Notes: a model not told the origin generated them from the sequence alone. A DNA stretch of 64,000 bases from Candidatus Omnitrophota bacterium (GCA_030650275.1 JAUSEK010000012.1:472-64471); one strand, 5' to 3'. Shown: positions 9,619 through 26,909, numbered from the stretch's first letter. A program made the numbers and translations.

Positions 9619-9633
9619 GAAGGGCTTATCGTA

Positions 9634-9710: not shown

Positions 9711-9728
9711 ATAAAAGTCAGTGGTAGA

Positions 9729-9922: not shown

Positions 9923-11466
<1,544 letters not shown>

Positions 11467-11517
11467 ATAACTTGGCTTTTTTGTAAACTTTGGCTAATTG
11501 AATTGAATCGGACAATC

Positions 11518-11634: not shown

Positions 11635-12552
11635 TTAAGATGAAAAAGAACCCAGAAGGCGGGTCAAATTGCCCCCAAAAACCATGCCTCTTTCGCGGGA
11701 GGACAGGAGGGTTTGGCTGATGACCCCCAGGGAATCCGTAAAGTTCTGGTTGGCGGGAAAATCACTGCCCCAAAGGATATGGGCAATATCCGTCACTTCC
11801 AAAGCTCCTGATAAAGAGGCCGGCGACTTGGAGCCGCTGGTGTCAAAATATAAATTCCTGAAATACTCTCCCGGCGCTTTGCCCAAATCCTTGACAAAAT
11901 TGCGCTTGCGCAGCATCGCATACGTGGAATCAAAACGTTCTTTGACGATGGGCAAAACCCCGCCATAGTGGGCAAAAATAAAATTCACGCCGGGATGCCT
12001 TAAAAATACGCCGGACATCATCATTTTGCCGATGCACATGGACACGTCAAAAACATATTCCAAGACCGGGCTTAACAAGGGGTCGCGCACGCGCTGTTCG
12101 CCGATGGGGTCCATGATCTGGGGATGGACGTGGATGGGAAAATGTTTGGCGCGGGCGAACGCGTACACGTCTTCAAACAGAGCATCGTCGAGATAGGTCC
12201 CCTGATAACTGGACGCGAGGGAAATGGCTTTGAGCCCCAGGTCTTCCATGCGCTTTAATTCCCGGGCGATGGCTGATGGGGCGTCCACCGGAATAATGCC
12301 GGCACCAACGAAACGGTCCGAATATTTTTTCACAAGATCGGCAATGGAAGAATTATATACGGAACACAATTTCTCCCATCCGCCCATGTTCAGGTGCGCG
12401 TCGCTGGTGGGATAGACCAGCAAAGCCCGGTCCACATGATACTCGTCCATGAGACGCAGTTGTTTGTCCGCGTCCGACCAATGCTCCTTGAAGAACGCTG
12501 TTTTCTGCGCCACGTCGGGCGGCATATAATGGCTGTGCGCGTCAATGACCAT
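11635..12552 (-). CDS. amidohydrolase_2 family protein (ACMSD/LigW-like metal-dependent aromatic-acid decarboxylase or hydrolase)
   Basis: 305-aa ORF with an N-terminal IDAHSH metal-binding motif and a TIM-barrel amidohydrolase layout. It is the last gene of the co-directional biosynthetic block. Confidence 0.8.
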   Translation of the reverse strand: MVIDAHSHYMPPDVAQKTAFFKEHWSDADKQLRLMDEYHVDRALLVYPTSDAHLNMGGWEKLCSVYNSSIADLVKKYSDRFVGAGIIPVDAPSAIARELKRMEDLGLKAISLASSYQGTYLDDALFEDVYAFARAKHFPIHVHPQIMDPIGEQRVRDPLLSPVLEYVFDVSMCIGKMMMSGVFLRHPGVNFIFAHYGGVLPIVKERFDSTYAMLRKRNFVKDLGKAPGEYFRNLYFDTSGSKSPASLSGALEVTDIAHILWGSDFPANQNFTDSLGVISQTLLSSRERGMVFGGNLTRLLGSFSS

Positions 12553-12812
12553 CAGACCATCTTACTGTCTTTGAGGATCTTGTCCGCGGCCTGCAGGGCC
12601 TTCATGAGTTCCGGCAAAAGGTGGATGTTGATGGAAACGCCTTTGGCCGTCGGGACCATTTGGTCAGAGCCCTGGGTCAAGGTCCATATGCGCACATCAA
12701 CCAGGTCATTGCCCTTGAACTCACGGATGCCCACGCGGACTTCCTGGAACTTATTTTTGGGAAACACTGAAACGGTTTTGTCCATGATGTTCCTTTCAAC
12801 CGGCCTGCTCAC
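12552..12812 (-). CDS. PC4/YdbC-like single-strand nucleic-acid-binding family protein
   Basis: 86-aa ORF; the KFQEVRVGIREFKGNDLVDVRIW...KGVSI pattern resembles the PC4-like fold. Stop overlaps the next start. Confidence 0.55.
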   Translation of the reverse strand: MSRPVERNIMDKTVSVFPKNKFQEVRVGIREFKGNDLVDVRIWTLTQGSDQMVPTAKGVSINIHLLPELMKALQAADKILKDSKMV

Positions 12813-12861
12813 CGGCTCGCAGGCGCGCTAAGCGGTCCGGCTTATTCGCCGGACCAGCGCC

Positions 12862-12972
12862 CTACTTCGCCTGCGTCTGTTGATAGTCAATGATGGGTTT
12901 GGTCCATGTCGTCAATTGATTGATGACCGCCAACTCCAAAGGACAGGCAATATTCCCTATTCCTTCGACTGC
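12862..12972 (-). pseudogene. duplicated 3' fragment of the adjacent SDR gene (36 codons, ends in the same ...PLELAVINQLTTWTKPIIDYQQTQAK-stop)
   Basis: Imperfect direct repeat of about 85 bp, 12876-12956 versus 12993-13072. The reverse-complement translation reproduces the C-terminal 29 aa of the SDR exactly. Confidence 0.55.
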
Positions 12973-12978
12973 ATAGGT

Positions 12979-13788
12979 TTATTTTGCTTGAGTCTGTTGA
13001 TAGTCAATTATTGGCTTAGTCCATGTTGTTAACTGATTAATGACTGCTAATTCAAGGGGACATGCGTTTGCTGGTACTGACAATGCAAAGCTGACCATGT
13101 CTGCCACGGCCACCGGGTCCATCAAACGGTCGCGCTGTTCCTTGGCCACGTCTTTCAAATGATCGGTCAGATCTGACGCGACGACACCGGGCAACAATGA
13201 AGTGACCTTGATATTGTGTTCGCGCATTTCCCAGAACAGGCCTTTGAGGAACGAACGCAAACCCATTTTCAGGGAACTGTAGGCCAAAAATCCGCGCGGG
13301 ATGGGGTCCACCAGCGTCGAACCGGAAACCACGCTGATGATCTGCCCGCTCTTGCGCGCCACCATGTCGGGGATGACCAGGCGGATCAGGCGCACATAGC
13401 CCAAATAATTGACATGGGCGAGCATTTCAAAATCCTCAATGGGCTGTTGGTGGAATGGATGCTGGCTGGAAACGCCGGCCACGTTGACGAGAATATCAAT
13501 TTGTTTGAAATGTGCCTTGGCCTTTTCCACCAAATTCTTAAGGTCTTCCAGTTTGGCCACGTCGGTCGGAATGCCGACGGCCTCGATGTGATATTTGCTT
13601 TTTAATTCCTGCACAGCCGCATCCAAAGGCCCCTGCGTGCGCGCGGCCAGCACCACATTGGCCCCGTGCTCGGCCAAACGCGCGGCAATGGCACGGCCGA
13701 TGCCGCGGCTTGCCCCGGTGATAAGGGCTGTCTTGCCTTTGAGATCAACCAAAACATGTGCCATACATTTCCTTTCCTGAATGGTCAT
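12979..13788 (-). CDS. short-chain dehydrogenase/reductase (putative polyketide ketoreductase)
   Basis: 269-aa ORF with an N-terminal TGASRGIGRAIA Rossmann motif and a downstream YxxxK catalytic motif. Confidence 0.85.
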   Translation of the reverse strand: MTIQERKCMAHVLVDLKGKTALITGASRGIGRAIAARLAEHGANVVLAARTQGPLDAAVQELKSKYHIEAVGIPTDVAKLEDLKNLVEKAKAHFKQIDILVNVAGVSSQHPFHQQPIEDFEMLAHVNYLGYVRLIRLVIPDMVARKSGQIISVVSGSTLVDPIPRGFLAYSSLKMGLRSFLKGLFWEMREHNIKVTSLLPGVVASDLTDHLKDVAKEQRDRLMDPVAVADMVSFALSVPANACPLELAVINQLTTWTKPIIDYQQTQAK

Positions 13789-14981
13789 TCCCCGAATACA
13801 TCAGGGATGGACTTTTGCCGCAACGGCGTTGAAGGAATGATCTTCGGAACAAAAATGATCTGGGCCAGCATCAAACAACCGATCGCGAAAAACGTCAGGC
13901 CGAAATTCATCTGGATGAAATTGCCGCTCAAATAAAACCCTAAGCCGCCGCTGAAAAACCGCACCGAAGAATTCAACGCCGCCAGTTCCGGCCGGTACAT
14001 GTCCGAAAGATCCGTCAGCACCGTGGATATACCGTTGTGGGCAATGGTCCAGCCGACGGAGATCATGGAAAGCACCAGGGCCAAAAACGCCAGCGAATAA
14101 TGGCCGTATAAAGCCATGGTGGATAATCCTAAGATCGCGATCCCTATATAGCAGGAATTAACGCGGCCATATTTATCCGTGACCACCCCGCCGATGAGCT
14201 GTCCCGCCACAGAGGCAATGGCCGTTAAAATGATCAAAGAACTGATGGTCAACTGATCGTAATTGTAGACCTTATCCAGATAAACGCCATACCATTTGCA
14301 TACGCCGTGAAAGAACAAACTCATGAAAAAAATAAAGATCAGGATGCGACGCAAACCGGCCAGACGAAAAGCATCGCCATAATTGACCTTGACCCCGGTA
14401 TTGGCCTCCATGCCTTCCTCGGGACAGAACCATAAACCGAAAACAAGTACAAAGCCCAACAGCGCCGGGACCGCGAATAGCCAATGCCAGTCGGCAAAAG
14501 CGCTTAAGACCAGCCCCAGCAAGGCGCCAAAGAACGACGAACTGAAAAACAACCCCAGGACCCGGCCGCGGATGTCTTTTTCAAATATCTTGCCCAGCGT
14601 CATGATCGCCAGCGGTGTGACGGCCGCGGCACCGATGCCCGCGATGACCCGCCCCAAGAGGATCATATTGAGCGAATCCGTCCACAGGCACATCCAGTTG
14701 CCGAAACCGCACAGCGCAACAGCCGCGATCATCAAATTTTTGATGGAGAACCGCACGGCCAGCGGCGCGTAAAAAAGCGCGCATACGCCATAGGGAATGA
14801 TATAGAACGGGATGATGCCCGCCGCATCCCCCATTGGAACATTCAAAGAGCGGCTGACCGCCGGAATGACCGCGGTCAGGGCTGAAATGTTAAATGAAAC
14901 AAGAACGTTGGTACAGCAAAAGAAAAATAAGATCCAACGTCTGCTAACGGGCGATCGATCATCGCCCCTACTTACTGACAT
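13785..14981 (-). CDS. MFS transporter
   Basis: 398-aa ORF with 12 predicted TM segments and MFS loop motifs. Overlaps its neighbours (operon). Confidence 0.8.
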   Translation of the reverse strand: MSVSRGDDRSPVSRRWILFFFCCTNVLVSFNISALTAVIPAVSRSLNVPMGDAAGIIPFYIIPYGVCALFYAPLAVRFSIKNLMIAAVALCGFGNWMCLWTDSLNMILLGRVIAGIGAAAVTPLAIMTLGKIFEKDIRGRVLGLFFSSSFFGALLGLVLSAFADWHWLFAVPALLGFVLVFGLWFCPEEGMEANTGVKVNYGDAFRLAGLRRILIFIFFMSLFFHGVCKWYGVYLDKVYNYDQLTISSLIILTAIASVAGQLIGGVVTDKYGRVNSCYIGIAILGLSTMALYGHYSLAFLALVLSMISVGWTIAHNGISTVLTDLSDMYRPELAALNSSVRFFSGGLGFYLSGNFIQMNFGLTFFAIGCLMLAQIIFVPKIIPSTPLRQKSIPDVFGE

Positions 14982-15417
14982 GGGCTTCAGATTCGATCAC
15001 TTTCTTGAATATCTGCAGGTTATCCTGCGAATGCTTGTTGATGAACCCTTCGATCTGCTCGGCGGTGAATTTGGTGAATTTGGGGTCCATTTCAAAATCC
15101 TGGATCCATTTCATGGAAATGCCGCCTTGAACTTCGGTATAGAACCACACAATTTTCATATACAAAAATGGGAACAGCGGGTCCCAACGCTGGGCATAGG
15201 CGAATTTCAGGTCCTTGTATAACCAGCGTTTGGACACCCATGACTTGCCATCCTCATCGGTCAGGCGAAAGGTGATCTCGTTGCCCTTGTGCTCCAGCAC
15301 ATCAGCGCTGGCATATTCCTTGCCGAACAATTCAGTCCAGCGTTCAATCTTGTTGGAAATATCAAAAATCAACTCGTATGGCGCATTGATGATGATTGAA
15401 TTTACTGTATGTCCCAT
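14968..15417 (-). CDS. SRPBCC superfamily protein (polyketide cyclase/aromatase-like, Polyketide_cyc2 type)
   Basis: 149-aa ORF; helix-grip fold length and pattern resemble TcmN/SnoaL-associated cyclase/dehydratase. 14-nt overlap with the MFS gene. Confidence 0.65.
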   Translation of the reverse strand: MGHTVNSIIINAPYELIFDISNKIERWTELFGKEYASADVLEHKGNEITFRLTDEDGKSWVSKRWLYKDLKFAYAQRWDPLFPFLYMKIVWFYTEVQGGISMKWIQDFEMDPKFTKFTAEQIEGFINKHSQDNLQIFKKVIESEAHVSK

Positions 15418-15481: not shown

Positions 15482-15555
15482 GCCCCGGTGGTGTAATGGA
15501 TCAGCATGCAGCTCTGGCGATGTCTGAGGCGCGGGTTCGAATCCCGCCTGGGGTA
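15482..15555 (+). tRNA. tRNA-like gene with aberrant D/anticodon region (isotype undetermined, possible pseudo-tRNA or tRNA-like sRNA)
   Basis: 7-bp acceptor stem (GCCCCGG/CUGGGGU), a perfect T-arm GCGGG-UUCGAAU-CCCGC and a discriminator A. Positions 8-49 do not fold into canonical D and anticodon arms. Instead they form one 7-bp bulged hairpin with a 12-nt loop GCAGCUCUGGCG. Confidence 0.5.
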
Positions 15556-15558
15556 CTA

Positions 15559-15909: not shown

Positions 15910-16749
15910 CTATAAAATAGCGACTACCCTGCTCCAACCCGCTCCCGCATTCCTTACTTTAACAGGTAAACAAGACACCGTAAACCCAAACGGTTTCGGG
16001 ATGGTGCCTAAATTACCCAAACGTTCCATGTGACAATACTCGCGCTCGCGTCCGAGGAAATGGCAGGGCCAGATCTTACTCTTGTCCTTGGTGGTCAAAA
16101 ATTCCTTGAACATCAAAAAACACGGGCGGTCAAGGCCGATGGTGTCAATGCCCATCATCTTGATGCCCGCATCCAGCAAATACTCCACGGCATCGGGCAT
16201 CATGCCCACATATTTGTTCACGTAATCGTCGGTCCCCAACAACTTGTCCCCACCCGTATAAATGAGCACAATGTCCATTGGCTTTAAAATATATTTGATC
16301 TTTTTCAGCGCGGCAATGACATGGTCCTTGGTGATGGCATCGGGGAATTTCAAATGGGTGAGATCCAAAACCACGCCGGGGCCATAACACCACTCCAGCG
16401 GCACGTCCATGATCTGTTTGGCCGGCTTGCCCTCGCACATACTTCCATAATGGAACGGCGCATCCACATGAGAGCCCATGTGCACCGACGAATGCACCAC
16501 TTCCAAAGACGGCATTTCGCCGCCGGGGATCTCCTCTGCCGTAGCAACACGCTCGCCTTTGTCAAAACGCTCCTGGCCCCCGGGCTGTTTGCTCATCACC
16601 ACCCAGTTGAAATGTTCAACACCCTGCGCATGCGTGATGCGGTCGATCTTGGCATCGTGCGTTTCGACAAGTGTGTCATCTATGGGTAAACTAAGGTCTA
16701 TAATTTTCATAATGCCTGGATTCCCGACAGAAACATTCGGGAATGACAA
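15910..16749 (-). CDS. cyclase-family protein (PF04199-like, kynurenine-formamidase fold; HxGxHxDxPxH metal motif)
   Basis: 279-aa ORF with a VHMGSHVDAPFHY motif. The first 13 codons (MSFPNVSVGNPGI) are encoded by a repeat element, so the true start is probably Met14 at 16710. Confidence 0.8.
   Translation of the reverse strand: MSFPNVSVGNPGIMKIIDLSLPIDDTLVETHDAKIDRITHAQGVEHFNWVVMSKQPGGQERFDKGERVATAEEIPGGEMPSLEVVHSSVHMGSHVDAPFHYGSMCEGKPAKQIMDVPLEWCYGPGVVLDLTHLKFPDAITKDHVIAALKKIKYILKPMDIVLIYTGGDKLLGTDDYVNKYVGMMPDAVEYLLDAGIKMMGIDTIGLDRPCFLMFKEFLTTKDKSKIWPCHFLGREREYCHMERLGNLGTIPKPFGFTVSCLPVKVRNAGAGWSRVVAIL
16716..16748. repeat. REP-like palindromic element, copy A (ATTCCCGAC-N9-TCGGGAAT core)
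   Basis: CTGGATTCCCGACAGAAACATTCGGGAATGACA. Related copies at 24765-24837 and 29840-29867. Sits at the ACP/cyclase gene junction. Confidence 0.6.
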
Positions 16750-16754: not shown

Positions 16755-17039
16755 TTAATGCTCATGCCCACAGCCGCAGGAATGGCCGCCACTGGCCTGG
16801 GCCTTGGATCTTAGAATGCCGATGATCTCATTGAACGAATGCGTCTTTTTCAATTCATTGTCCTTAAGCGCGATGCCCAGTTCCTTTTTGATACCGACCG
16901 AGATCTCCACCATTTCCGTTGAGTCAATGTCCAAGGACTCGTCCAGTTTTGCGCCGGGGATGATCTCGCTGTCCTTGATATCCAGAACCTTTTTGAAGAT
17001 GGCTTTGACCTTGCTTTCGAGGTCTGTCTGGGTCTGCAT
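16755..17039 (-). CDS. acyl carrier protein (phosphopantetheine Ser in a DIDSTEMVEI motif) with a Cys/His-rich C-terminal tail
   Basis: 94-aa acidic ORF with an ACP four-helix pattern. The C-terminus is SGGHSCGCGHEH. Confidence 0.8.
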   Translation of the reverse strand: MQTQTDLESKVKAIFKKVLDIKDSEIIPGAKLDESLDIDSTEMVEISVGIKKELGIALKDNELKKTHSFNEIIGILRSKAQASGGHSCGCGHEH

Positions 17040-17060: not shown

Positions 17061-18293
17061 TTAAAGTTTCTGCAGGACTAAAACGCAGTTGATCCCGCCG
17101 CGTCCGCGGTTGATGATCAAAGCATTCTTGATAGTTTTTGCCTGCGCTTTGTTGGGGCAATAATCCAGGTCGCATTCCGGGTCCGGTGTCTGATAATTGA
17201 TGGTCGGCGGCACCATGCCGTGTTCCATGGCCAGCACCGTCGTGATGACGTCCAAAGCCCCGCAGGCGCCCAGCATATTGCCGAACACCGACTTAGGCGC
17301 GGACACCGGTACCTTCTTCGCGTAACCGTTAAAGGCCTGTTTGATGGCTTTTGTTTCGGTGATGTCGCCCAAAACTGTTGCAGCACCATCAGCGCAAATA
17401 TAATCAATGTCTTTGGGGGAAAGCCCGGCATCGTCCAGGGCTGATCTGATGGCACGGGCCAATTGTTTGGCATCCGGCGCCGGATCAATGCGGTTGACAG
17501 CATCGGTGGTGGACGCATAACCGATGATATTGGCATAGACATGGGCTTTACGCTTGATGGCCCGTGACTGCGGTTCCAGCGTCAAGACCCCGGCACCTTC
17601 GGCAATGGCCAAACCATCGCGGTTTTTGTCAAACGGCCGATACGCTTGGCGCGGGTCATCATTGCGTTTGGACAAAACCCCTGACGTGTTGCAGCACAAA
17701 AGCGCGTAGGGCGTCACCGGCGCTTCCATGCCCCCGGCCAAAATAAAATCGCATTTGTTACGGATGATGGTCCTGGCCGCGTAGCCGATGGCCATCAAAG
17801 AACTGGCCCTGTCCGCGACAATGGTCTTGGAAAAACCTTTGATGCCGTAATGAATGGATATCTGCCCCTGCGGTGCCGCGGGAAACCACGCGGAGGCCAT
17901 GAAAGGACTCACCCCTTCCCGGCCTTCCAGATACATATCGCGCAACTCGGTCTCGGCATACAGCCAACCGCCCAAGGCATTGCCCATAAAGATCCCGACG
18001 CGCTTTAAATCCTCGTCAGGCAGATTAATGCCCGCGTCATTCAGGCACATTTCAGAAGCCACCAAAGCCATATGCGAAAAAAGATCTATCTTCTTTAAAA
18101 GCCGCGATGAGACATTGCTATAAGCATCCAATTCTTTGACAGTCCCGGCAATGCGCGACGGATAAGCGCTGGCGTCGAAACGCTCGATCTTTTCAACCGC
18201 GCTCCTGCCATGGGCCACATTGGCCCAGAACACTTTTTTGTCCATCCCTGACGGGGATATGACGCCTAAACCGGTGATCGCAATGGGGTCCAT
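17061..18293 (-). CDS. ketosynthase-like chain-length-factor partner (KS-beta/CLF-like; catalytic triad replaced)
   Basis: 410-aa thiolase-fold KS homolog. The active-site Cys position reads ADRASS (Cys to Arg). Both catalytic His positions are changed (CADGAAT has Asp, FGNMLGA has Asn). 4-nt overlap with the upstream KS gene. Confidence 0.8.
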   Translation of the reverse strand: MDPIAITGLGVISPSGMDKKVFWANVAHGRSAVEKIERFDASAYPSRIAGTVKELDAYSNVSSRLLKKIDLFSHMALVASEMCLNDAGINLPDEDLKRVGIFMGNALGGWLYAETELRDMYLEGREGVSPFMASAWFPAAPQGQISIHYGIKGFSKTIVADRASSLMAIGYAARTIIRNKCDFILAGGMEAPVTPYALLCCNTSGVLSKRNDDPRQAYRPFDKNRDGLAIAEGAGVLTLEPQSRAIKRKAHVYANIIGYASTTDAVNRIDPAPDAKQLARAIRSALDDAGLSPKDIDYICADGAATVLGDITETKAIKQAFNGYAKKVPVSAPKSVFGNMLGACGALDVITTVLAMEHGMVPPTINYQTPDPECDLDYCPNKAQAKTIKNALIINRGRGGINCVLVLQKL

Positions 18294-19561
18294 TAGGAAT
18301 ACCTTTGCAAGGTCATGGCTGAGTGAATGCCGGAAAAACCACTGGATGTCTTAAGAATACAATTAACTTTCTTCTGTATCGCTTCGTTGGGAATGTAATA
18401 CAGATCACATAAGGGGTCCGGTTCCTGCTGATTGATGGTCGGCGGCAAAATGTTGCGCTCAAAGATCAGGGAACTCAAAGCCAGCTCTATTCCGTTGGCA
18501 CCGGCCAAAGGATGGCCGATCATGGACTTCACCGAACTGATGGGAACTTTATACGCGTACGGGCCCAAGGCCATCTTATAAGCGCTGGTCTCGAACACAT
18601 CGTTCTGGCGCGTCGAGGAACCATGGGCGTTGACATAATCAATGGTTTCGGGTTTGATGCCGGCATCTTCCAGGGCCAAGGTAATGCTGTCGGCCATGGC
18701 ATCGCCTTCCGGCGGCAGATCGGTCATGTGATAAGCATTGCAGGTGGTGCCGAAACCGGTGATCTCGCAATAAATGCGCGCCCCGCGTTTGAGGGCGTGC
18801 TCCAATTCTTCAACGACCAAAAGCCCGGCGCCTTCGGAAATGACAAAACCGTTGCGTTGATTGTCGAACGGCCGTGAGGCCCCGGCCGGATCATCATTGT
18901 GCACGGAAAGGACATTGACAGTGTCAAAAGCGCCGAACGTGATGGGGGTGACGGGCGCTTCACTGGCGCCGGTGAGCATGATGTCCGCGTCCCCGTCGCT
19001 GATGGCCTCAAAAGAAAACCCGACGGAGTCCGTGCCCGCGGTACAACCCGTAGAAATGGTATTGCAAACACCCTGAAGGCCATACTTGGCGGAAAGTTCA
19101 CTCGAAGGCGTGTTGAACATCGCGGCATCGTATAGGTCCGGACGGACAATAAGCGGATTGATGGGTTTCTTGCCGCTGTCCGTGACCAGGGCGAATTCTT
19201 CTTCCATGTATTTGGTGCCGCAAATGGCATTGGCCAAAGACACGCCCATGCGCTCTTTGTCCACTTTGAAGAGATCCAAACGGGAATCCTGCAAGGCCAT
19301 GCGGCCGGCCACCATGGCGAATTGGACATAACGGTCCATGCGTATGGCTTCTTCAAACGTAAGACCCAAAGCCACGGGGTCAAAATCACGCACCTGGGCC
19401 GCGATCTTGGTGTTAAAGAGCGACACATCAAATTCTGTGACCCGGCGCACAGCCGAAACGCCCTTGATCATGGCGCTGTAACAGGCATCATTGCCGATGC
19501 CGTTGGGCGCGATGATGCCGACGCCCGTGACAACCACCCTGCGTTTCTTATTCTTATTCAT
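18293..19561 (-). CDS. beta-ketoacyl synthase (KS-alpha type, intact Cys-His-His)
   Basis: About 422 aa. Active-site Cys in ISTGCTAGTDS, His in NAHGSST and MIGHPLAG. The ATG at 19559-19561 overlaps the stop of the preceding gene. Confidence 0.9.
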   Translation of the reverse strand: MNKNKKRRVVVTGVGIIAPNGIGNDACYSAMIKGVSAVRRVTEFDVSLFNTKIAAQVRDFDPVALGLTFEEAIRMDRYVQFAMVAGRMALQDSRLDLFKVDKERMGVSLANAICGTKYMEEEFALVTDSGKKPINPLIVRPDLYDAAMFNTPSSELSAKYGLQGVCNTISTGCTAGTDSVGFSFEAISDGDADIMLTGASEAPVTPITFGAFDTVNVLSVHNDDPAGASRPFDNQRNGFVISEGAGLLVVEELEHALKRGARIYCEITGFGTTCNAYHMTDLPPEGDAMADSITLALEDAGIKPETIDYVNAHGSSTRQNDVFETSAYKMALGPYAYKVPISSVKSMIGHPLAGANGIELALSSLIFERNILPPTINQQEPDPLCDLYYIPNEAIQKKVNCILKTSSGFSGIHSAMTLQRYS

Positions 19562-19989
19562 CAATGCCTCAACGTTTCGTCCATCAAATTGTTATGGCTG
19601 GCAATGACCTGCCAGCGGTCCTTACCTTTTTTCCACGTCATGGTGTAGCGGCGGATGACCCGCTTGCCGCCTTCCGCGTTGATCTCAACCGTAAAGATCA
19701 AATATTGCAAAATGGCGATGTCCCCGTGGAGTTTCATCTGAACAGGACGCAATTCGCAGATGGCGATATTCGTATTCTTGGTCCAGAACCCCACCCATTT
19801 CTCCAGCCACGGACGGTCAACGGGAATGGGGCTTTCATGGCCATAGCCGATCATGTCAGGATGAATGTATTTAATAAATTCATCCACACGCTTGTTGATC
19901 AAATGGTCCCAATGCGTTTCCACGCAACCCCACACCTCACGCTCTTTTTCCCCCCAATACTCTGGGATCCATGACGCTAATTGACTCAT
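19561..19989 (-). CDS. SnoaL-like/NTF2-superfamily protein (putative polyketide cyclase)
   Basis: 142-aa ORF with an alpha+beta cone-fold pattern. Translationally coupled to the KS gene. Confidence 0.65.
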   Translation of the reverse strand: MSQLASWIPEYWGEKEREVWGCVETHWDHLINKRVDEFIKYIHPDMIGYGHESPIPVDRPWLEKWVGFWTKNTNIAICELRPVQMKLHGDIAILQYLIFTVEINAEGGKRVIRRYTMTWKKGKDRWQVIASHNNLMDETLRH

Positions 19990-21002
19990 ATGGCCTCCGC
20001 TTTTAATTTTAAACCAAATGCGTTCTTCACATGTTCCACACTAAAGAATTTTCCCGTCCGCTCAACCTCATGCACCATATCCACGACGCGTTCGTTGAGC
20101 GGCGCATGGCCATGCAGACCTTTAGCCAAACGCACCGCTTCCCCGTTAATGAACTCTATTTCGCTCGTCTTGCCGCGCAGGATGCTCTGCAAAATAGAAC
20201 CGTACAACGGTTCTTTGCTCAAACCGGTCAGGGTTTTGTTGATGATCCCAGCACTTTGTTCAAGCGGCATATTGGCCAAACCTAAAATTCTTTCCTTCGG
20301 GAAATCCGGCATGGAAACCATCTCGATCTTCGCCTGCCGCACAATGTCCAGCCCTTCCTTGAGCAGCAGAATGCTCAAACGGCACAGGTCCAGATCAGCA
20401 AAGGTCTCCTGCATGGACTTGCCGACCAGCGCCGGGATGCAATTGTTGAAATTCACAAAAAGTTTCAGGTACTTCATCCCCATGATGTCGGGGCTCATCA
20501 CCACTTTAAACGCCTTGCCCAGGACCTCACCGGCCTTATGCGCGGCCGGGTCCAAAGGCGCCAAGGGACGGCCGATGATCCAATCGCCTTCAAAATTGAA
20601 AGTCACCTCGCCGGGTTTGACGTAAGTAGCGCCGAACATCACGATGCTTGACATTTGCCGGCCGCGGTCAAGATGGTTGCTCAATAAATGGTCCGCCTGT
20701 ACGCCGTTCTGGCTTGTCAAAACAAGGCCTGTTCCCAGATATTCACTATTTTGCTCAAAGGCCTTTTCCAGGTCTTGCGTCTTGACGGTAAAAATGACCA
20801 GGTCATAGGGTTTGTCCAGACGCAAGGCGGTGCGCACGCGAATATTCTCACTTCCCCGCACGCCCTTGATGGTCAGACCATTGGCCTTGATGGCCTTCAC
20901 CTGATCGGGCCGGCCCACTAAAAGCACGTCCTGCCCTGCCTTGGTCAAATAACCGGCGACAACACAACCGATGGCGCCGGCACCGATGACCGCGATCGTC
21001 AT
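19986..21002 (-). CDS. 2-dehydropantoate 2-reductase (ApbA/PanE) family NAD(P)H-dependent oxidoreductase
   Basis: 338-aa ORF with an N-terminal IAVIGAGAIG Rossmann motif and the KPR two-domain architecture. Confidence 0.8.
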   Translation of the reverse strand: MTIAVIGAGAIGCVVAGYLTKAGQDVLLVGRPDQVKAIKANGLTIKGVRGSENIRVRTALRLDKPYDLVIFTVKTQDLEKAFEQNSEYLGTGLVLTSQNGVQADHLLSNHLDRGRQMSSIVMFGATYVKPGEVTFNFEGDWIIGRPLAPLDPAAHKAGEVLGKAFKVVMSPDIMGMKYLKLFVNFNNCIPALVGKSMQETFADLDLCRLSILLLKEGLDIVRQAKIEMVSMPDFPKERILGLANMPLEQSAGIINKTLTGLSKEPLYGSILQSILRGKTSEIEFINGEAVRLAKGLHGHAPLNERVVDMVHEVERTGKFFSVEHVKNAFGLKLKAEAI

Positions 21003-21268
21003 GCCTGCCCCTTATAATGAAGACCAACCTCATCCATGATACGGATCATCAACGAATAGAAGGCCTTGGGCACTTCCGTCGTGAAAGCGGCCACAATGTC
21101 CTTTTCCTCAACCTGCGTCGAGGCGCGCTGCTGCGCGTTCTGTTCGGCCTTTTTATTCACCACTTCCTGCGCGATGCCGCGATGGAAAATGGGAATAAGA
21201 TTGAGCATCCTGTTGTATTTAGCCAGGGCCGTGGGCTCCCAGGCCATTGTCGTGTGAACGCTGACCAT
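20999..21268 (-). CDS. hypothetical small protein (89 aa) coupled to the radical-SAM gene
   Basis: Overlaps both neighbours by 4 nt. No confident motif; possibly a PCP_red-like accessory domain, as often found next to B12-binding radical-SAM enzymes. Confidence 0.45.
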   Translation of the reverse strand: MVSVHTTMAWEPTALAKYNRMLNLIPIFHRGIAQEVVNKKAEQNAQQRASTQVEEKDIVAAFTTEVPKAFYSLMIRIMDEVGLHYKGQA

Positions 21269-21272
21269 TATT

Positions 21273-22745
21273 TTACTTCGCCGCGGACACGCGCGAGTTC
21301 GCCTCCCATTTGGAAATGTTATTCATGAAATCCTTCACGCACAATTTCACCTTGATATGATAGTTGCTTTCCATGATCCGGTGGATGCGTTCCGGCTTGG
21401 AATAATATTCACGCATGCACCAGGCCCCCAAACGGCCGACCTCCTCGATGCTGAGATGATCGGTGGGGATGACCGGATGCTGGAAATCCCAGTCCTTGAG
21501 ATCGATCTTGTCCGGATCGAACCATCCTTTCTTGATCCCGTAACGCCAGTCCGGAGAATTGGGCACCGGCGTCAAATAATCCAGGGCAAAAATGTCCGAA
21601 TCGATCTCATCGGCAACGCGCAAACGTTCCTTGATCTTCGCTTCCGTGTCCTCTTTGAGGCCGATCAATACCGTCCCGACACTGCCGATATCATTTTCAC
21701 GCAAAATATCGACCGTCTTTCTGATCTGCGCGATGGTCACTCCTTTGCCGGTCTTGCTCAAGGTCATATCGTCCTCGACCTCCACACCCGTTAACGCCAA
21801 AAACAAGCCCGCTTTTTTCATCAACGGCAGGATCTCGTGCTGGGAGACCCATTGGTCGGCACGGCCCAAACACACCCAGTCGATCTTGTTGCCGCGCTTG
21901 AGTTTCTCCTCGCAGAATTCGATCATGGCGGCGGTGTCCGTATTGAACGCGTCATCCTGAAAAACAACCGTGTTGATCCCGTATTGCTTCTCTAAAATAT
22001 CCAGTTCATCAACGATGCGTTTGCCTTTCAGCCCCCGCCAGGACGTGAAATCTTTGGCGGCGGTGCGGCTGTCATAAAGCGCCCATTCATAACAAAAATG
22101 ACATTTGCCCGGACAACCGCGGGACGTCATCAATTCCGCGAACGGTTTCCAATAGGTGTGCCCGACATATTTGTCCATGGGGAACAGATCATAAGCCGGC
22201 ATGGGCAGGACGTTCAAATCAGGGATCAGATCACGGTGCGGCCCCACGACAATGGCCCCGTCTTTCTGACGGGACACCAGGCCCGGGATCTCCCGTTCAT
22301 TCCTGGGATCGCCCGCGGCCATATTATTGATCAGGTCCTCCATGGTCAATTCCGCCTCCCCGATCATGATGTAGTCAATGGTCGGGTTCAAGCGCATCTG
22401 GCGTTCGTAATCGCCGGAATACCATAACCCCCCGGCCACGGTCCTGACCTTAGGGCTAGCTTCTTTGATGATGCGAAGCCCCTCATTAAAATACCAGATG
22501 ACCGCGGCACCGCAGGTGGAATGCAGCAATTCCCCGACAAAAACAATGTCCGGCTTGCTGTTTTGAACGAATTTCAGCATCGCCTCCCAGTCCATGTCCA
22601 GCGCGCGGGAGTCGAGCACTTCCACCTGGGCTAGATTTCTTTCACGCAAATAGGCGGCCAGCTGCGCGTGCATCTGATTGGCGGCTTTGTGGTTGCCGTG
22701 TGAATCCCATGCTTTCAACGGCGGTGTCAAAAATAGAACTTTCAT
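21273..22745 (-). CDS. B12-binding radical SAM protein (class B rSAM, methyltransferase/BchE-like)
   Basis: 490-aa ORF with an N-terminal cobalamin-binding Rossmann-like domain and a CPGKCHFC (CxxxCxxC) radical-SAM cluster motif. An AGGAGA Shine-Dalgarno sequence lies upstream. Confidence 0.85.
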   Translation of the reverse strand: MKVLFLTPPLKAWDSHGNHKAANQMHAQLAAYLRERNLAQVEVLDSRALDMDWEAMLKFVQNSKPDIVFVGELLHSTCGAAVIWYFNEGLRIIKEASPKVRTVAGGLWYSGDYERQMRLNPTIDYIMIGEAELTMEDLINNMAAGDPRNEREIPGLVSRQKDGAIVVGPHRDLIPDLNVLPMPAYDLFPMDKYVGHTYWKPFAELMTSRGCPGKCHFCYEWALYDSRTAAKDFTSWRGLKGKRIVDELDILEKQYGINTVVFQDDAFNTDTAAMIEFCEEKLKRGNKIDWVCLGRADQWVSQHEILPLMKKAGLFLALTGVEVEDDMTLSKTGKGVTIAQIRKTVDILRENDIGSVGTVLIGLKEDTEAKIKERLRVADEIDSDIFALDYLTPVPNSPDWRYGIKKGWFDPDKIDLKDWDFQHPVIPTDHLSIEEVGRLGAWCMREYYSKPERIHRIMESNYHIKVKLCVKDFMNNISKWEANSRVSAAK

Positions 22746-22795
22746 AACGTTCTCCTGTTATTGTACGGGCGGGGTTACCCCGCCCCTACGTTCAT

Positions 22796-24298
22796 TTAAA
22801 ACCACGACGTGACCAGCGGCTTGCCTCCCGGCGTCTGGTCAGTGGTGACTGTTTTGATCTGTGTGTATTCATACAGCCCTTCTTTGCCCAATTCCCGTCC
22901 AAAACCGCTTTGTTTATACCCGCCGAACGGCACGGCATTGTCAAAAGCGCCATAGGTATTGATCCAGACCGTGCCGCAACGTAAACGTTTGGCCACACCA
23001 TTGGCCTTGGCCAGATCCTGCGTCCACACCATGGCCGCGAGACCATACTTGGTTTCATTGGCCAGATGAACCGCCTCATCAACGGATGTAAAAGGCATCA
23101 CGCACAATACCGGGCCAAAAATTTCTTCCTGCGCGATGGTCATGTTGTTGCGCACGTCAATAAAGATCGTGGGTTCAAGATAAGCCCCTTTAGGATTTGT
23201 CCCCGCCGGAACTTTACCGCCGCACACCAATTTTGCCCCTTCTTTCTTGCCCTGTTCGATCAAACGCAAAACAGCGTCGCGATGGGTAGTATTGACCAAA
23301 GGACCGAACTCGGTCTCAAAACTGTCCGCCGGGCCTATCGTTAATGTTTGGGCGCGTTTCACCAGTTGCCCGACGAATGTCTTATAAATTTTGTCCTCCA
23401 CCAAAAGCCGCGACCCGGCCGTGCACATCTGTCCCTGATTCATAAAAATGGAAGCCAAAGTCCCGCCCACCGCCGCTTCCATATTGCAATCGGCAAAAAC
23501 GATGTTGGGAGATTTGCCGCCCAATTCCAGCGTCAATTTCTTAATGCTCTTGGCGGCCTGGGCCATCACCGCTTTTCCGGTTTCTGTTGAGCCGGTAAAA
23601 GACACCATATCCACCTGGGAATGGGAAACCAGCTCGCTGCCGGCCTGGGCACGTGAAGAACTGATGATATTTAAAACACCTTTAGGTAATCCGGCCTGGG
23701 CGATGATCTTGCCTAAAGCCATGACCGCAACACAGGCGGTCGGCGATGGTTTTAAAACAACGGTATTGCCGGCCAGTAAAGCCGGAGCGATCTTCCACGC
23801 GGCCGTGATCAAAGGATAATTCCAGGGAATAATGGCCGCCACAACACCAACAGGTTCCCGGCTGACAAGACACAGATGAGGGGACGGTATTTCTATGGTC
23901 TCGTTATTTAACGGGGTCTCGAAATTTCCAAAATATTCAAACGTATCCGCGCAGGTCGGGACATCAATGAAGGTCGCGTGCTTGATGGTCTTACCGGTTG
24001 ACCAGCATTCCAGGTCCGCTAATTCTTTGGCATTCTCCCGGATCAGTTGGGCGATGCGCAATAAAAATTTTCCCCGTTCGGCCGTGGCCATTTGCGGCCA
24101 GCGGCCGTGGTCAAAAGCCAGGCGAGCGGCGTTGACAGCGATCTCAACGTCCACGGCATCAGCGTCCGCCAAGCGCGCGAACACCTCGCCGTTGGAAGGA
24201 TTAACGCAATCAAAATATTGACCGCTCAACGAAGGCGCTACCTTGCCTTCGAGCAACAAATCAAATTTCTCTATTTTTGATCCTATTATCATATTCAT
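22796..24298 (-). CDS. NAD(P)-dependent aldehyde dehydrogenase
   Basis: 500-aa ORF with a catalytic Cys in a QGQMCTAGSR context, plus ELGGKSP and FTGSTETG motifs. Confidence 0.9.
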   Translation of the reverse strand: MNMIIGSKIEKFDLLLEGKVAPSLSGQYFDCVNPSNGEVFARLADADAVDVEIAVNAARLAFDHGRWPQMATAERGKFLLRIAQLIRENAKELADLECWSTGKTIKHATFIDVPTCADTFEYFGNFETPLNNETIEIPSPHLCLVSREPVGVVAAIIPWNYPLITAAWKIAPALLAGNTVVLKPSPTACVAVMALGKIIAQAGLPKGVLNIISSSRAQAGSELVSHSQVDMVSFTGSTETGKAVMAQAAKSIKKLTLELGGKSPNIVFADCNMEAAVGGTLASIFMNQGQMCTAGSRLLVEDKIYKTFVGQLVKRAQTLTIGPADSFETEFGPLVNTTHRDAVLRLIEQGKKEGAKLVCGGKVPAGTNPKGAYLEPTIFIDVRNNMTIAQEEIFGPVLCVMPFTSVDEAVHLANETKYGLAAMVWTQDLAKANGVAKRLRCGTVWINTYGAFDNAVPFGGYKQSGFGRELGKEGLYEYTQIKTVTTDQTPGGKPLVTSWF

Positions 24299-24302
24299 AC
24301 GG

Positions 24303-24374
24303 AATTATGGGGACACAATACTTAATTCCTAATGCTTGTCAAACGGTTGAATTAAATATTGTGTCCCTATAATT
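24303..24374. repeat. 72-bp palindromic element with AATTATGGGGAC termini (second copy of the ITS element family)
   Basis: AATTATGGGGACACAATA ... TATTGTGTCCCTATAATT with an 18-bp stem. Intergenic between the ALDH and aldolase genes. Confidence 0.55.
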
Positions 24375-24376
24375 CA

Positions 24377-25426
24377 TTATTCCACCGGTACATTCGTCCA
24401 TAATTGAAAAATACGGCTGCAAGGCGCGTACCATTTGGAAATGCGCGCGAAATCGCCTTTTAAGAACATTTTCTTCTGCGTCGTGGCCACGAACGGGTCT
24501 ATTTGCCGGCTGAACACCGCCCGCCACACCGCTTCCGGCGCGTTGATGACAAATTCCGCGTCCGCGTCCTGCGCGACCTGCGTGATACGGCCGTTCTCAA
24601 ATGTAAACCGGTGGGCCTGCCCTGTCTCATCCAAAATGACCGCGAGGGCCATGTTCATCGCGGTCTTGTTGCCCAATTCCTGCATCTGCGCGTCGGCATT
24701 GACTAGGCGCACGATCTCTTCGATCTGTTCTTTGGAAAATAATTTGTATTTTTTATTTTTGTCACCCCCGAATGTTTCTGTCGGGGGTCCAGAAATAGAC
24801 GTGTCTGGATTCCCGACAAAAGCATTCGGGAATGACATTTTTTTATAATGAACGTCGACCAGATCCATTTTTACTTGTTCTTCCAATTCCTGAATAAGCA
24901 CAAATGCATTGAATAGATCGTCCCCCACCGCGACAACGCCGTGGTTCTTAAGCACTACGATATTGTTTATTTTCAACGCTTCCACCACTGGCGCGGGGTC
25001 AGTCACTGATGGGGTTGTTTGGGCAATGGCTTTCACTTCACCCAGATAAAATTGCGCTTCAAATGTTTTAGGCGTGAAGCGGTCGTTGGATAAAAAGAAA
25101 CCATTGGTGTAGGTTGTATGCGTATGCAAAACGCATTGGACCTTCGGCATCGCTTTGTAGATTGCCGTGTGCATCAGCCGCTCGCTGGATGCCTTACCTT
25201 TCCCGATAACCGCGCCCTTAAGGTCCATCGTGAGAATGTCTTTGTCCGTCAAATGTCCCAGACATGTTCCCGTGGCTGTTATCAAAACAGTATCGGCATC
25301 CAGGCGATGGGAAATGTTACCGTTAAAACCAAACACCAGCCCCTTGTCCCACAACAGACGTCCGGTCCGGATCATTTCTTCTTTTATTTGTTTCTCATTC
25401 ATATCAGGTATTTCTTCGGGACCCAT
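24377..25426 (-). CDS. class II aldolase/adducin-family protein (MtnB/Ald2-like) fused to a C-terminal SCP2-like domain
   Basis: 349-aa ORF. Residues 1 to about 205 are aldolase_II (GFNGNISHR, HTH motifs). Residues about 235-349 resemble an SCP2 sterol-carrier domain (FLKGDFARISKW). A 26-aa linker, MSFPNAFVGNPDTSISGPPTETFGGD, is encoded by REP-like copy B. Confidence 0.75.
   Translation of the reverse strand: MGPEEIPDMNEKQIKEEMIRTGRLLWDKGLVFGFNGNISHRLDADTVLITATGTCLGHLTDKDILTMDLKGAVIGKGKASSERLMHTAIYKAMPKVQCVLHTHTTYTNGFFLSNDRFTPKTFEAQFYLGEVKAIAQTTPSVTDPAPVVEALKINNIVVLKNHGVVAVGDDLFNAFVLIQELEEQVKMDLVDVHYKKMSFPNAFVGNPDTSISGPPTETFGGDKNKKYKLFSKEQIEEIVRLVNADAQMQELGNKTAMNMALAVILDETGQAHRFTFENGRITQVAQDADAEFVINAPEAVWRAVFSRQIDPFVATTQKKMFLKGDFARISKWYAPCSRIFQLWTNVPVE
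24765..24837. repeat. REP-like palindromic element, copy B (three consecutive hairpins) embedded in-frame in the aldolase ORF
   Basis: Hairpins CCCCCGAATGTTTCTGTCGGGGG, TCCAGAAATAGACGTGTCTGGA and ATTCCCGACAAAAGCATTCGGGAAT, followed by a T7 tract at 24838-24847. Confidence 0.6.
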
Positions 25427-25872
25427 TCCACCAAAGGCACATAACCATGAACACCTTTGGGCGCTGTTCTTTTGCCTTCAAAAGACAAAATATCCTCGGG
25501 GTTACCCAAAAACCGCGCCTTATGTTCGGCCGGTGCTAATTGAACCGGTACGTTATGGCGTTTGGCCAAAACCGCCAGGACCAACCCTCCCATATCGCAC
25601 AAAGCCCCGCTTTTATCCGCGAATTGGCAGGCCAAAACCACTTGCTTGACCAACCCCTTAAAGAACAGGAACCCGGCCATATTGTCGCAAATCACCGTCG
25701 GAACAATGCCTTTCCTGACCAGGGCCGCGCTGTTGCCTTTGCCCGCGCTAAGGTCCGGCCTACCCTCCAGAACAAAAACAGAGGCCGTCTTTGCCGGTTT
25801 AAAGGTCTTGAAAAAACCATCGGCACAAACGCCCTGTAAAAGAACAATGGATCCCGTTTTATAATCCCGCAT
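25399..25872 (-). CDS. truncated eIF-2B/MtnA-family paralog (C-terminal Rossmann-like half only)
   Basis: The ORF is open to 26025, but the probable start is the ATG at 25870-25872 (157 aa), overlapping the MtnA stop by 14 nt. Sequence parallels the MtnA C-terminal half (VICDNMAG vs VVPDNTVG; AVLAKRHNVP vs AVLAKEFGIP). Confidence 0.55.
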   Translation of the reverse strand: MRDYKTGSIVLLQGVCADGFFKTFKPAKTASVFVLEGRPDLSAGKGNSAALVRKGIVPTVICDNMAGFLFFKGLVKQVVLACQFADKSGALCDMGGLVLAVLAKRHNVPVQLAPAEHKARFLGNPEDILSFEGKRTAPKGVHGYVPLVEWVPKKYLI

Positions 25873-26824: not shown

Positions 26825-26909
26825 GAGCGGGTCCTGTCTTCGGTTTCCCCCACCGTGCTCGTTCCTGCGCGCGGTGGGGGTCCCCCTACCGAAGCCACCC
26901 GCTGCCAGT

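Follow-up and report, generated by a model that had tools for sequence, protein, structure and literature searches.

A ketosynthase/chain length factor pair with arginine at the catalytic-cysteine position in a type II polyketide synthase operon of Candidatus Omnitrophota

Introduction

In KAS enzymes, the side chains of the catalytic cysteine and of the first catalytic histidine are in contact with each other. For the chain length factors (CLFs) of actinomycetes, a glutamine-assisted decarboxylation of malonyl-ACP has been proposed. [quoted passage not shown] In anammox bacteria, which belong to the PVC group as do the Omnitrophota, an active ketosynthase (KS; amxFabF2) is found together with an inactive FabF-like partner (amxFabFmut), with radical SAM genes nearby; PDB entries 9S5H/9S5I probably represent this heterodimer.

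The actinorhodin (act) KS/CLF (PDB 1TQY) is a heterodimer with an intact KSα triad. Its CLF (1TQY_B) lacks the cysteine and both histidines, and glutamine, aspartate and arginine are present at the three respective columns, in line with the statement in the initial annotation of the locus described here that classical CLFs carry glutamine at the cysteine position. AntD/AntE of Photorhabdus (AQ-256; PDB 6SMO) is a non-actinobacterial KS/CLF whose CLF has no glutamine either; a legend in PMC6638757 gives the AntE residue at the cysteine column as aspartate, and the register (Asp versus Asp-Arg) follows that legend. Pairs of KS and CLF have previously been catalogued in Omnitrophica (PMC10132072). 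Here, we compare one such pair and its operon with these systems.

Results

We analyzed a 64,000-nt stretch of DNA (the window) from a Candidatus Omnitrophota genome (GCA_030650275.1, JAUSEK010000012.1:472-64471). All features given below are located on its minus strand. The window contains a KSα/CLF-type pair that is part of a type II PKS operon, as revealed by domain composition, PDB matches and a neighbor-joining (NJ) tree, which bears out the initial annotation of a KS/CLF-like pair. The active ketosynthase, KSα (18293..19561), has 422 aa when read from the ATG at 19561, and an in-frame TTG at 19564 provides an alternative start (18293..19564, 423 aa). The chain length factor, KSβ (17061..18293), has 410 aa, and both proteins match PF00109 and PF02801. 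The two genes had been described as overlapping by 4 nt; the actual junction reads tccTAATGgac, with one base common to the stop codon TAA and the start codon ATG and hence a 1-nt overlap. A 4-nt overlap is present only at the boundary between the SnoaL-like gene and KSα, and only with the TTG start. Among related loci (best 80 of 497), the spacing between KSα and KSβ was at most 30 nt in 22 of 80, with small genes intervening in others. Since intergenic spacing differs between relatives, translational coupling was dropped as a functional feature.

The catalytic set of KSα is complete (Cys173, His313, Lys345 and His350, with the ATG as residue 1), confirming that the upstream partner is intact, as is its CNAYHMT motif. 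The Omnitrophota pair thus resembles the act heterodimer in its intact KSα triad, deduced here from the genes. The best matches of KSα among PDB sequences were act KS (1TQY_A, 386 bits) and AntD (6SMO_B, 362 bits). In the NJ tree it fell inside the KSα clade with 100% bootstrap support, grouped with characterized aromatic-PKS KSα proteins and not with FabF. KSβ formed one group with act CLF and other KSβ proteins (60% bootstrap), and the combined KSα and KSβ group was split from FabF at 100%. KSβ was nevertheless far less diverged from FabF (326 bits in a phmmer search of PDB sequences) than from act CLF (243 bits), and when a profile built from Arg-type CLFs, as defined below, was run against the PDB, FabFs again came out at the top, above act CLF. 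The entries of the probable anammox heterodimer scored 244 and 214 bits, below FabF, and Iga KS (6KXD_A), the reference for aryl-polyene and highly reducing type II PKSs, scored just 169 bits. AntE is far more diverged, lying outside the 60 matches listed of the 110 obtained for KSβ (E ≤ 1e-20). Judging from sequence, the pair is probably the KSα/KSβ heterodimer of a minimal type II aromatic PKS of the non-actinobacterial lineage, heterodimer and product both being predicted.

The active-site columns of KSβ were set by three independent alignments: phmmer against Bacillus subtilis FabF (4LS5), BLASTP against the KSα of the same pair, and a MAFFT alignment that included actinorhodin CLF and relatives. 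All three agreed in placing Arg162 (in ADRASS; codon AGG, 17808..17810) at the catalytic-Cys column, Asp302 (in CADGAAT; codon GAT, 17388..17390) at the first-His column and Asn339 (in FGNMLGA; codon AAT, 17277..17279) at the second-His column; the corresponding residues of both KSα and FabF are Cys, His and His. Arg162 is directly preceded by Asp161 (codon GAC, 17811-17813). The three replacements that had been read manually were thus reproduced, and neither Cys nor Gln was present at the Arg162 column in any alignment, so the manual alignment had not been shifted. Having arginine and not glutamine at this column, KSβ lies outside the classical actinomycete CLF/KSQ type. Lys334 is retained. 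The FabF motif GFGGHN is represented by GRGGIN, in which the gate Phe is changed to Arg, and in DGAAT (versus HGTST) one of the two pantetheine-binding threonines is gone.

Several derived states are common to KSβ and act CLF in addition to the loss of the cysteine and both histidines, namely, an acidic residue immediately N-terminal to the dead nucleophile (AD-R in KSβ, AE-Q in act CLF), the change of the first His to Asp (CADGA and FADGA) and that of the gate Phe to Arg (GRGG and GRWG). Of the substitutions initially pointed out, the change from His to Asp is therefore not distinctive, as act CLF reads FADGAG, and CLFs without glutamine were already known from AntE, which has Asp according to the legend in PMC6638757; the arginine itself is real and conserved.

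An AlphaFold2 model of the KSβ monomer had a thiolase fold and a pLDDT of 89.9, with disorder confined to residues 111-136, the dimer-interface/tunnel region. Such disorder in an otherwise confident monomer model would fit a region that is ordered only in the heterodimer. A Foldseek search with the model matched FabF and act KS at a TM score of 0.9. Trp110, Ala113 and Leu117 align to the gate residues of act CLF (109, 112 and 116), and the gate pattern Trp-x-x-(Gly/Ala)-x-x-x-Leu is common to KSβ and the non-actinomycete "ancestral" CLFs. Deriving chain length or product size from these residues was dropped as too weak an inference.

We then examined how widely the arginine is conserved. A scan of genome contigs yielded 497 confirmed loci. 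We analyzed the 80 best, all of which came from Omnitrophota or from MAGs mislabelled "Planctomycetales". As the initial annotation had proposed to look for, the same substitution recurred in related genomes: Arg was present at the Cys column in 76/76 Omnitrophota species-level loci in which the motif was found (best 80 of 497), encoded by all six codons (CGC, CGG, CGT, CGA, AGG and AGA), and in 116 of the 120 closest protein clusters. Given this near-universal presence and the use of six different codons, Arg162 is under strong purifying selection rather than being a chance substitution.

Taxonomic breadth beyond Omnitrophota was assessed by two further protein searches and not by the contig scan. 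A separate search of protein representatives with KSβ had a top 150 dominated by multi-KS type I PKS giants, whose scores are summed, and left about 10 usable single-domain matches. Of 304 sampled relatives, 284 had Arg or Lys at the Cys column, including proteins from Clostridium beijerinckii, C. puniceum, Pyxidicoccus, Sorangium, Archangium, Leptolyngbya and Desulfobacterota. With this distribution across phyla, the suggestion that arginine defines a new CLF subtype did not hold up; arginine is rather the state that predominates throughout the non-actinobacterial CLFs as a clade and not a peculiarity of the Omnitrophota locus. From our alignments we derived a definition, not a published one, of an Arg-type CLF clade: the Cys column holds an Arg preceded by Asp, Glu or Gly, and the first-His column holds an acidic residue (Asp or Glu). 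KSβ carries this signature (Asp-Arg at 161-162 and Asp302), and its DR/D form is common to KSβ and the Clostridium, myxobacterial, cyanobacterial and Desulfobacterota proteins. No explicit statement on arginine in CLFs was found in the accessible literature, with key subscription papers outside its reach, and this state is apparently undiscussed in searchable papers.

The charge at the Cys column covaried with that at the first-His column. Among the 284 proteins with a basic residue at the former, 282 had an acidic residue at the latter and 2 did not, whereas 16 proteins with neutral Ser, Ile, Thr or Met had Asn or Ala at the first-His column and none combined a neutral with an acidic residue. 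This pattern is suggestive, but it reflects few independent events (approximately 2-3 lineages with neutral residues) and does not amount to statistical proof. The second-His column is Asn in the Omnitrophota, Desulfobacterota and Nitrospirota clade, whereas His is kept in clostridial, myxobacterial and cyanobacterial Arg-type CLFs.

Of the two roles that had been considered for KSβ, a new subtype or a purely structural partner, we favor the structural one on the basis of these sequence comparisons. All decarboxylative Claisen condensations on malonyl-ACP would be performed by KSα, while KSβ would be catalytically dead and would shape the acyl tunnel where it ends, at the dimer interface. The geometry of the triad and the covariation suggest that the guanidinium of Arg162 may pair with the carboxylate of Asp302, its proposed ion-pair partner, and possibly with that of Asp161. 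Such a buried Arg-Asp ion pair would fill and stabilize the vestigial active-site pocket of KSβ. Since KSβ has no glutamine, it would be unable to carry out Gln-assisted decarboxylation of malonyl-ACP, and priming would have to rely either on KSα or on a starter unit that the AMP-ligase of the cluster activates.

A different role for Arg162, in which the KSβ pocket is open and the arginine binds the malonyl carboxylate for decarboxylative priming as an analogue of the Gln of actinomycete CLFs and KSQ domains, seems to us unlikely. While the very strong conservation of the arginine speaks for this role, Arg covaries with an acid and does not stand alone, and the flanking Asp161 and Asp302 would repel a carboxylate. 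Lys334 is still present, but one pantetheine-binding threonine is lost and Arg takes the place of the gate Phe, just as it does in act CLF. The second His, whose retention in many Arg-type CLFs outside the clade of this KSβ would also favor such a role, is Asn within it. Malonyl-ACP decarboxylation also persists in KS heterodimers with an inert partner, as described for anammox FabF2/FabFmut (bioRxiv 10.64898/2026.05.19.726425).

The genes around the pair were compared across related loci; the counts given here are for loci with enough flanking sequence among the best 80 of 497. Downstream of KSβ lies the gene for an acyl carrier protein (16755..17039; 94 aa, PF00550, with a DS phosphopantetheine motif), found in 69/69 loci. 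Its Cys/His-rich C-terminal tail was seen in the source genome only, and no ortholog reaches into it. Two families of aromatic-polyketide cyclases are encoded within the operon: a PF04199 "Cyclase" family protein (15910..16749), the OxyN type of the literature, with 46% identity to its homolog in the C. beijerinckii cluster (64/64 loci), and an SRPBCC/TcmN-like polyketide cyclase (14968..15417; weak PF03364 match), with 43% identity to the Clostridium and 54% to the Desulfobacterota homolog (54/55 loci). The block of tailoring and export genes (11635..14981), syntenic in relatives, encodes an MFS transporter (13785-14981), an SDR ketoreductase (12979-13788) and an Amidohydro_2 protein of the aromatic-acid-decarboxylase family (11635-12552). 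The upstream genes of the operon (19561..22745) encode a SnoaL/DUF4440-like protein (19561-19989), an ApbA/PanE-type reductase (19986-21002; 62/62 loci), a small 89-aa protein (20999-21268; 62/62) and a B12-binding radical SAM enzyme (21273-22745; 52/57). They are followed by conserved neighbors (22796..29179) encoding an aldehyde dehydrogenase, a class II aldolase-SCP2 protein, an IF-2B/MtnA-like isomerase (two open reading frames), a PNP_UDP_1 phosphorylase and an AMP-dependent ligase, together resembling a salvage module akin to 5'-deoxyadenosine or methylthioadenosine salvage. In Omnitrophota, the aldehyde dehydrogenase was linked to the PKS in 54/54 and the aldolase in 50/51 of these loci, and the linkage of the salvage-like module to the PKS was also seen in one Desulfobacterota MAG.

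The operon has a homologous counterpart in a cluster of C. beijerinckii and C. puniceum, the two clostrubin producers. Identities between the clostridial and Omnitrophota proteins were 44% for KSα, 43% for KSβ, 46% for the PF04199 cyclase, 43% for the SRPBCC cyclase and 30% for the Amidohydro_2 protein. Judging from organism and cluster content, with no accession match, the clostridial CLF is very likely the clostrubin CLF ClrB, and the CLF of Pyxidicoccus fallax is probably PcyF. The dead-nucleophile motif reads VADRASG in the Clostridium CLF, ERASGH in that of Pyxidicoccus and ADRASS in Omnitrophota KSβ, and all three share an acidic residue at the first-His column; at the second-His column the Omnitrophota KSβ clade has Asn, whereas the Clostridium and Pyxidicoccus CLFs have His. 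The B12 radical SAM enzyme, ApbA reductase, aldehyde dehydrogenase and salvage-like module are additional in the Omnitrophota operon and are missing from the Clostridium and Archangium clusters.

We also considered whether the pair, instead of making an aromatic product, might be a KS/CLF-like heterodimer that derives from FabF and yields a reduced or lipid-type one, as do the anammox pair and the highly reducing type II PKSs, with the radical SAM enzyme acting on the acyl chain. FabF is the top-scoring match of KSβ, the KS pair is adjoined by the B12 radical SAM enzyme, the ApbA reductase and the SDR protein, and the host is a PVC member like the anammox bacteria. Calls of the antiSMASH type have moreover assigned "ladderane" clusters to Omnitrophota MAGs (PMC9902471). 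We nevertheless regard such a product as quite improbable: KSα is typical of aromatic PKSs, being nearest to act KS and AntD and having the CNAYHMT motif; two aromatic cyclase families are present, while a domain search of the PKS operon found no FabZ/FabA dehydratase and no enoyl reductase; and the homologous Clostridium cluster belongs to the two clostrubin producers. The anammox FabF2/FabFmut-type FAS heterodimer was also dropped as a model, as it differs in Cys-column residue, gene order and context. Unlike the Omnitrophota KSβ, amxFabFmut carries Val or Thr in place of the Cys and is encoded upstream of the active KS, in a FAS-type context (FabZ, amxACP) with no cyclases.

That the KSβ substitutions represent an alignment artefact or a decaying gene has found no support and can be set aside with near certainty, given the agreement of the three alignments, the synonymous codons at the Arg column and a full-length reading frame that is 71-95% identical in at least 80 species.

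Discussion

For the pair itself, which is a normal KS/CLF, very little changes, arginine being what non-actinobacterial CLFs normally carry. In the literature accessible on type II PKSs, on the other hand, the site in the CLF is treated as "Gln, or simply inactive," and our data show a conserved and covarying Arg/acid pair in many phyla. This pair bears on the long-standing question of whether any chemistry takes place at the CLF site.

One tentative reading, which we find possible but on balance doubtful, combines these observations. The Arg-Asp pair would be the ancestral CLF state and a mutational intermediate through which a FabF-like Cys gave way to the Gln of actinomycetes, and the operon would encode a pathway that anaerobic Omnitrophota have inherited vertically across their whole lineage. 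At the codon level, one transition leads from Cys (TGY) to Arg (CGY) and another from Arg (CGR) to Gln (CAR), whereas the direct path from Cys to Gln takes three changes. If such an intermediate existed, decarboxylative priming with the help of Gln would have arisen late, and the role of the first CLFs would have been structural alone.

The Omnitrophota/Desulfobacterota version of the operon combines an "ancestral" type II PKS with a B12 radical SAM enzyme and a salvage-like module (phosphorylase, isomerase, class II aldolase, aldehyde oxidation and AMP-ligase), and this module might turn the by-product of the radical SAM enzyme back into a starter for the polyketide. What the pathway makes could be an aromatic compound of physiological importance, such as a quinone-like one. 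FabF-like KS/CLF pairs that can be expressed in E. coli are wanted for the engineering of aromatic polyketides, and the highly conserved Omnitrophota family is a candidate. With its unusual operon partners, it is also a candidate for the discovery of a polyketide that serves the physiology of anaerobes.

The syntenic conservation of the cluster in Omnitrophota is very wide, which is unusual for a secondary-metabolite cluster and could mean that it has another role. The operon, which is also present in a Desulfobacterota MAG, could be a lineage-wide Omnitrophota pathway rather than a sporadic antibiotic cluster. A related core, without the B12 radical SAM and salvage genes, was observed in a Nitrospirota-type MAG, where a U32 (UbiU/V-family) protein replaces the radical SAM enzyme.

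KSβ lacks the catalytic triad of its KSα partner

The ketosynthase pair is encoded on the minus strand by KSα (18293..19564; 423 aa from a TTG start, or 422 aa if the ATG at 19561 is used) and KSβ (17061..18293; a 410-aa open reading frame [ORF]), both of which carry N- and C-terminal ketoacyl-synthase domains. The window derives from a "Candidatus Omnitrophota" MAG, and a protein match at 100% identity is present in NCBI. In a phmmer alignment of KSβ with Bacillus subtilis FabF (4LS5), ungapped near the catalytic residues, Arg162 (ADRASS) aligned to the catalytic Cys of TACATG, Asp302 (CADGAAT) to the His of NAHGTS, and Asn339 (FGNMLGA) to the His of TGHLLG. BLASTP against the KSα of the window (35% identity) gave identical columns (STGCTAG, VNAHGSS, and MIGHPLA), as did MAFFT alignments with the actinorhodin chain length factor (act CLF; the sequence used is identical to PDB 1TQY_B). 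The three substitutions proposed in the initial annotation were thus upheld by all three methods, none of which placed a Cys or Gln at the active-site column of KSβ. KSα keeps Cys173, His313, Lys345, and His350; KSβ has none of the triad residues and retains Lys334.

The 4-nt overlap reported for the two genes was not confirmed: their junction (tccTAATGgac) is a 1-nt overlap, and the only 4-nt overlap is that of the preceding SnoaL-like gene with the TTG start of KSα. Among the best 80 of 497 confirmed genome loci, all from Omnitrophota or mislabelled "Planctomycetales" MAGs, the KSα-KSβ spacing was tight in 22, 31 to 600 nt in 42, and outside both ranges in 16. Since this spacing is not conserved, translational coupling is incidental. 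Six proteins of ∼820 to 870 aa (P0125, P0148, P0241, P0242, P0250, and P0265) contain two KS-like stretches, each matching KSβ, and may be natural KSα-KSβ fusions.

The pair probably belongs to a type II PKS branch outside the actinomycetes

The best solved relatives of KSα were the actinorhodin KS (386 bits) and Photorhabdus AntD (362 bits), both above every FabF, and its sequence marks it as a typical aromatic-PKS KSα. KSβ has diverged less from FabF (326 bits) than from act CLF (243 bits). In a neighbor-joining tree of 23 sequences, all KSα proteins formed a single clade (100% bootstrap), as did all KSβ proteins including act CLF (60%), with FabF split from the two combined at 100%; the Omnitrophota KSβ grouped with Desulfobacterota and Nitrospirota proteins at 99%. 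By function and descent, the pair is probably the KSα/CLF of the non-actinomycete type II PKS branch, which has been called ancestral in the literature. The anammox FAS-type heterodimer was rejected as its identity on the published description.

At the triad columns, act CLF has Gln, Asp, and Arg, whereas the KSβ of the window has Arg, Asp, and Asn. The first His-to-Asp change, although real, is therefore not peculiar to KSβ but a CLF character shared with act CLF (FADGAG and CADGAA, respectively). Both proteins also have an acidic residue ahead of the dead nucleophile (AEQ in act CLF and ADR in KSβ) and an Arg in place of the gate Phe (GRWG and GRGG, compared to GFGG in FabF). The Gln of classical CLFs is, however, lacking in KSβ and in the rest of its clade. 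Photorhabdus AntE has Asp instead of Gln at the Cys column (PMC6638757).

Arg at the Cys column is conserved and widespread

The D-R-A-S-S motif was present in 116 of the 120 closest KSβ protein clusters. At the species level, it was readable in 76 of the 80 genome loci, and all 76 have Arg, encoded by CGC, CGG, CGT, CGA, AGG (the codon in the window), or AGA; this residue is clearly under selection. A representative protein search recovered more distant KSβ proteins with the same Asp-Arg, which exact look-up identified as a protein of Clostridium beijerinckii and C. puniceum (P0162; VADRASG at the Cys column), an Archangium protein (P0240), and a protein of Deltaproteobacteria MAGs (P0121). 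The neighborhood of P0162 has the order KSα-KSβ-cyclase-SRPBCC-PPTase...Amidohydro_2-ACP. Both Clostridium species produce clostrubin, for which ClrB has been named as the CLF (PMC7693217), and we infer that P0162 is ClrB.

Two protein searches that started from the Clostridium and Archangium sequences widened the range of Arg-type CLFs to Pyxidicoccus fallax (probably PcyF), Sorangium, Polyangium, Corallococcus, Vitiosangium, Leptolyngbya, Rhizonema, Bacillus cytotoxicus, Desulfobacter, and many metagenomic proteins. Arg or Lys occupied the Cys column in 284 of 304 distinct sampled relatives, so that the Arg, initially considered unusual, is unusual only relative to actinomycete CLFs. Nor does it define a new CLF subtype, being common to a clade that spans Clostridium, myxobacteria, cyanobacteria, and Desulfobacter. 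KS-CLF pairs of "Candidatus Omnitrophica" have already been listed (PMC10132072). The searchable literature made no mention of a CLF Arg, which is weak evidence given that some of the central papers lie behind paywalls. Recognition that the common CLF state outside Actinobacteria is an Arg/acid pair rather than Gln may be new.

Arg162 may fill a vestigial pocket

Among the 304 relatives, the residue at the Cys column covaried with that at the first His column: a basic residue was accompanied by an acidic one 282 times and lacked it twice, and in 16 cases neutral Ser, Ile, Thr, or Met was combined with Asn or Ala, no neutral residue having an acidic counterpart. This pattern is suggestive rather than statistical proof, as the neutral variants represent no more than two or three lineages. 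Because the side chains of the Cys and first His are in contact in KAS enzymes, Arg162 and Asp302, perhaps together with Asp161, should form a buried ion pair that would fill the vestigial KSβ pocket. The two acids around Arg162 would make it a poor carboxylate binder, which argues against the alternative that it acts in malonyl decarboxylation. The absence of Gln from KSβ implies that priming would have to depend on KSα alone or on a starter that the clustered AMP-ligase activates and supplies. In the anammox FabF2/FabFmut pair, malonyl-ACP decarboxylation is compatible with an inert partner (bioRxiv 10.64898/2026.05.19.726425).

An AlphaFold2 model of the KSβ monomer (pLDDT 89.9) was confident except at residues 111 to 136, which aligned to the interface helix of act CLF; this disorder in the model would fit an obligate heterodimer. 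In act CLF, this helix bears the residues that gate chain length (109, 112, and 116). The corresponding KSβ residues are Trp110, Ala113, and Leu117, a pattern common to other Arg-type CLFs. In the genetic code, a single step separates Arg from Cys (TGY to CGY) and likewise from Gln (CGR to CAR), which suggests a Cys-to-Arg-to-Gln path that we only infer, the root of the CLFs having 22% support in the tree.

The operon is almost invariant and linked to a radical SAM gene

The core operon (minus strand) comprises genes for a SnoaL/DUF4440-like protein, KSα, KSβ, ACP, a PF04199 cyclase, an SRPBCC (TcmN-like) cyclase, an MFS transporter, an SDR reductase, and Amidohydro_2. Upstream lie genes for an ApbA-type reductase, a small 89-aa protein, a B12-binding radical SAM enzyme (rSAM), an aldehyde dehydrogenase (ALDH), a class II aldolase-SCP2 fusion, an IF-2B/MtnA-like isomerase, a PNP_UDP_1 phosphorylase, and an AMP-dependent ligase. 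Among those of the 80 Omnitrophota loci with enough flank, this arrangement was almost invariant: KSα, 67/67; ACP, 69/69; PF04199 cyclase, 64/64 (median identity, 86%); SRPBCC, 54/55; ApbA, 62/62; small protein, 62/62; rSAM, 52/57; ALDH, 54/54; aldolase, 50/51; and SDR, 40/43. This architecture recurs in a Desulfobacterota MAG, where the rSAM, ApbA, phosphorylase, isomerase, and aldolase genes are all present and an aldehyde:ferredoxin oxidoreductase replaces ALDH.

The rSAM and salvage-like genes (21273-29179, minus strand) are persistently linked to the PKS (related loci L087, L001-L003, and L007-L086). The salvage-like set consists of the phosphorylase, the isomerase, the aldolase-SCP2, ALDH (or its Desulfobacterota replacement), and the AMP-ligase. 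It looks like a "DHAP shunt" for 5'-deoxyadenosine or methylthioadenosine attached to the PKS and could serve rSAM by-product recycling or starter-unit supply; this linkage across anaerobic phyla is a more intriguing lead than the Arg residue. The isomerase is encoded by two overlapping ORFs (25862-26824 and 25399-26025, minus strand), apparently as a conserved pair of genes and not through a frameshift error, because the same split occurs in L002, L003, and L087. The core operon is also kept in a MAG (locus L089) whose KSβ is of the Nitrospirota-annotated type with Ser and Asn at the Cys and first His columns. At the place of the Omnitrophota B12-rSAM gene, L089 (2774-4946) encodes a Peptidase_U32 (UbiU/UbiV-family) protein and DUF2621-like small proteins, a hint that the product may undergo O2-independent ring hydroxylation.

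The C terminus of the ACP is a Cys/His-rich tail (GGHSCGCGHEH; 16755-16800, minus strand), into which none of 76 orthologous ACP matches reached. In other Omnitrophota genomes, selfish-looking small genes lie between KSα and KSβ or directly after ACP, with the core intact (L001, 9720-9989 and 11490-12295; L002 and L003, 9601-9966); some encode a 23S_rRNA_IVP-family four-helix protein or a CdiI_3-like protein, and others have no family assignment. A tRNA-like gene (15482-15556, plus strand; Rfam tRNA, 46 bits) lies antisense within the 495 bp that separate the cyclase gene from the SRPBCC gene. ARAGORN reported it as "tRNA-???" with a four-base anticodon, ggcg, i.e., an 8-nt anticodon loop, and only two related loci (L031 and L023) have copies at the same place (75 to 81% identity).

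The cluster is embedded among housekeeping genes, as PlsX (991-1977), RecG (3661-5742), thyA/folA (36 to 37.5 kb), and a full rRNA operon (6251-11467, minus strand; 16S, two tRNAs, 23S, and 5S) lie nearby, the last beginning ∼170 bp downstream of Amidohydro_2, the final gene of the cluster. The conserved block is bordered upstream, next to the AMP-ligase gene, by an integrase of an IS element (rve family; 29912-30751, minus strand), and a 2161-aa ORF lies further along at 50096-56581 (minus strand).
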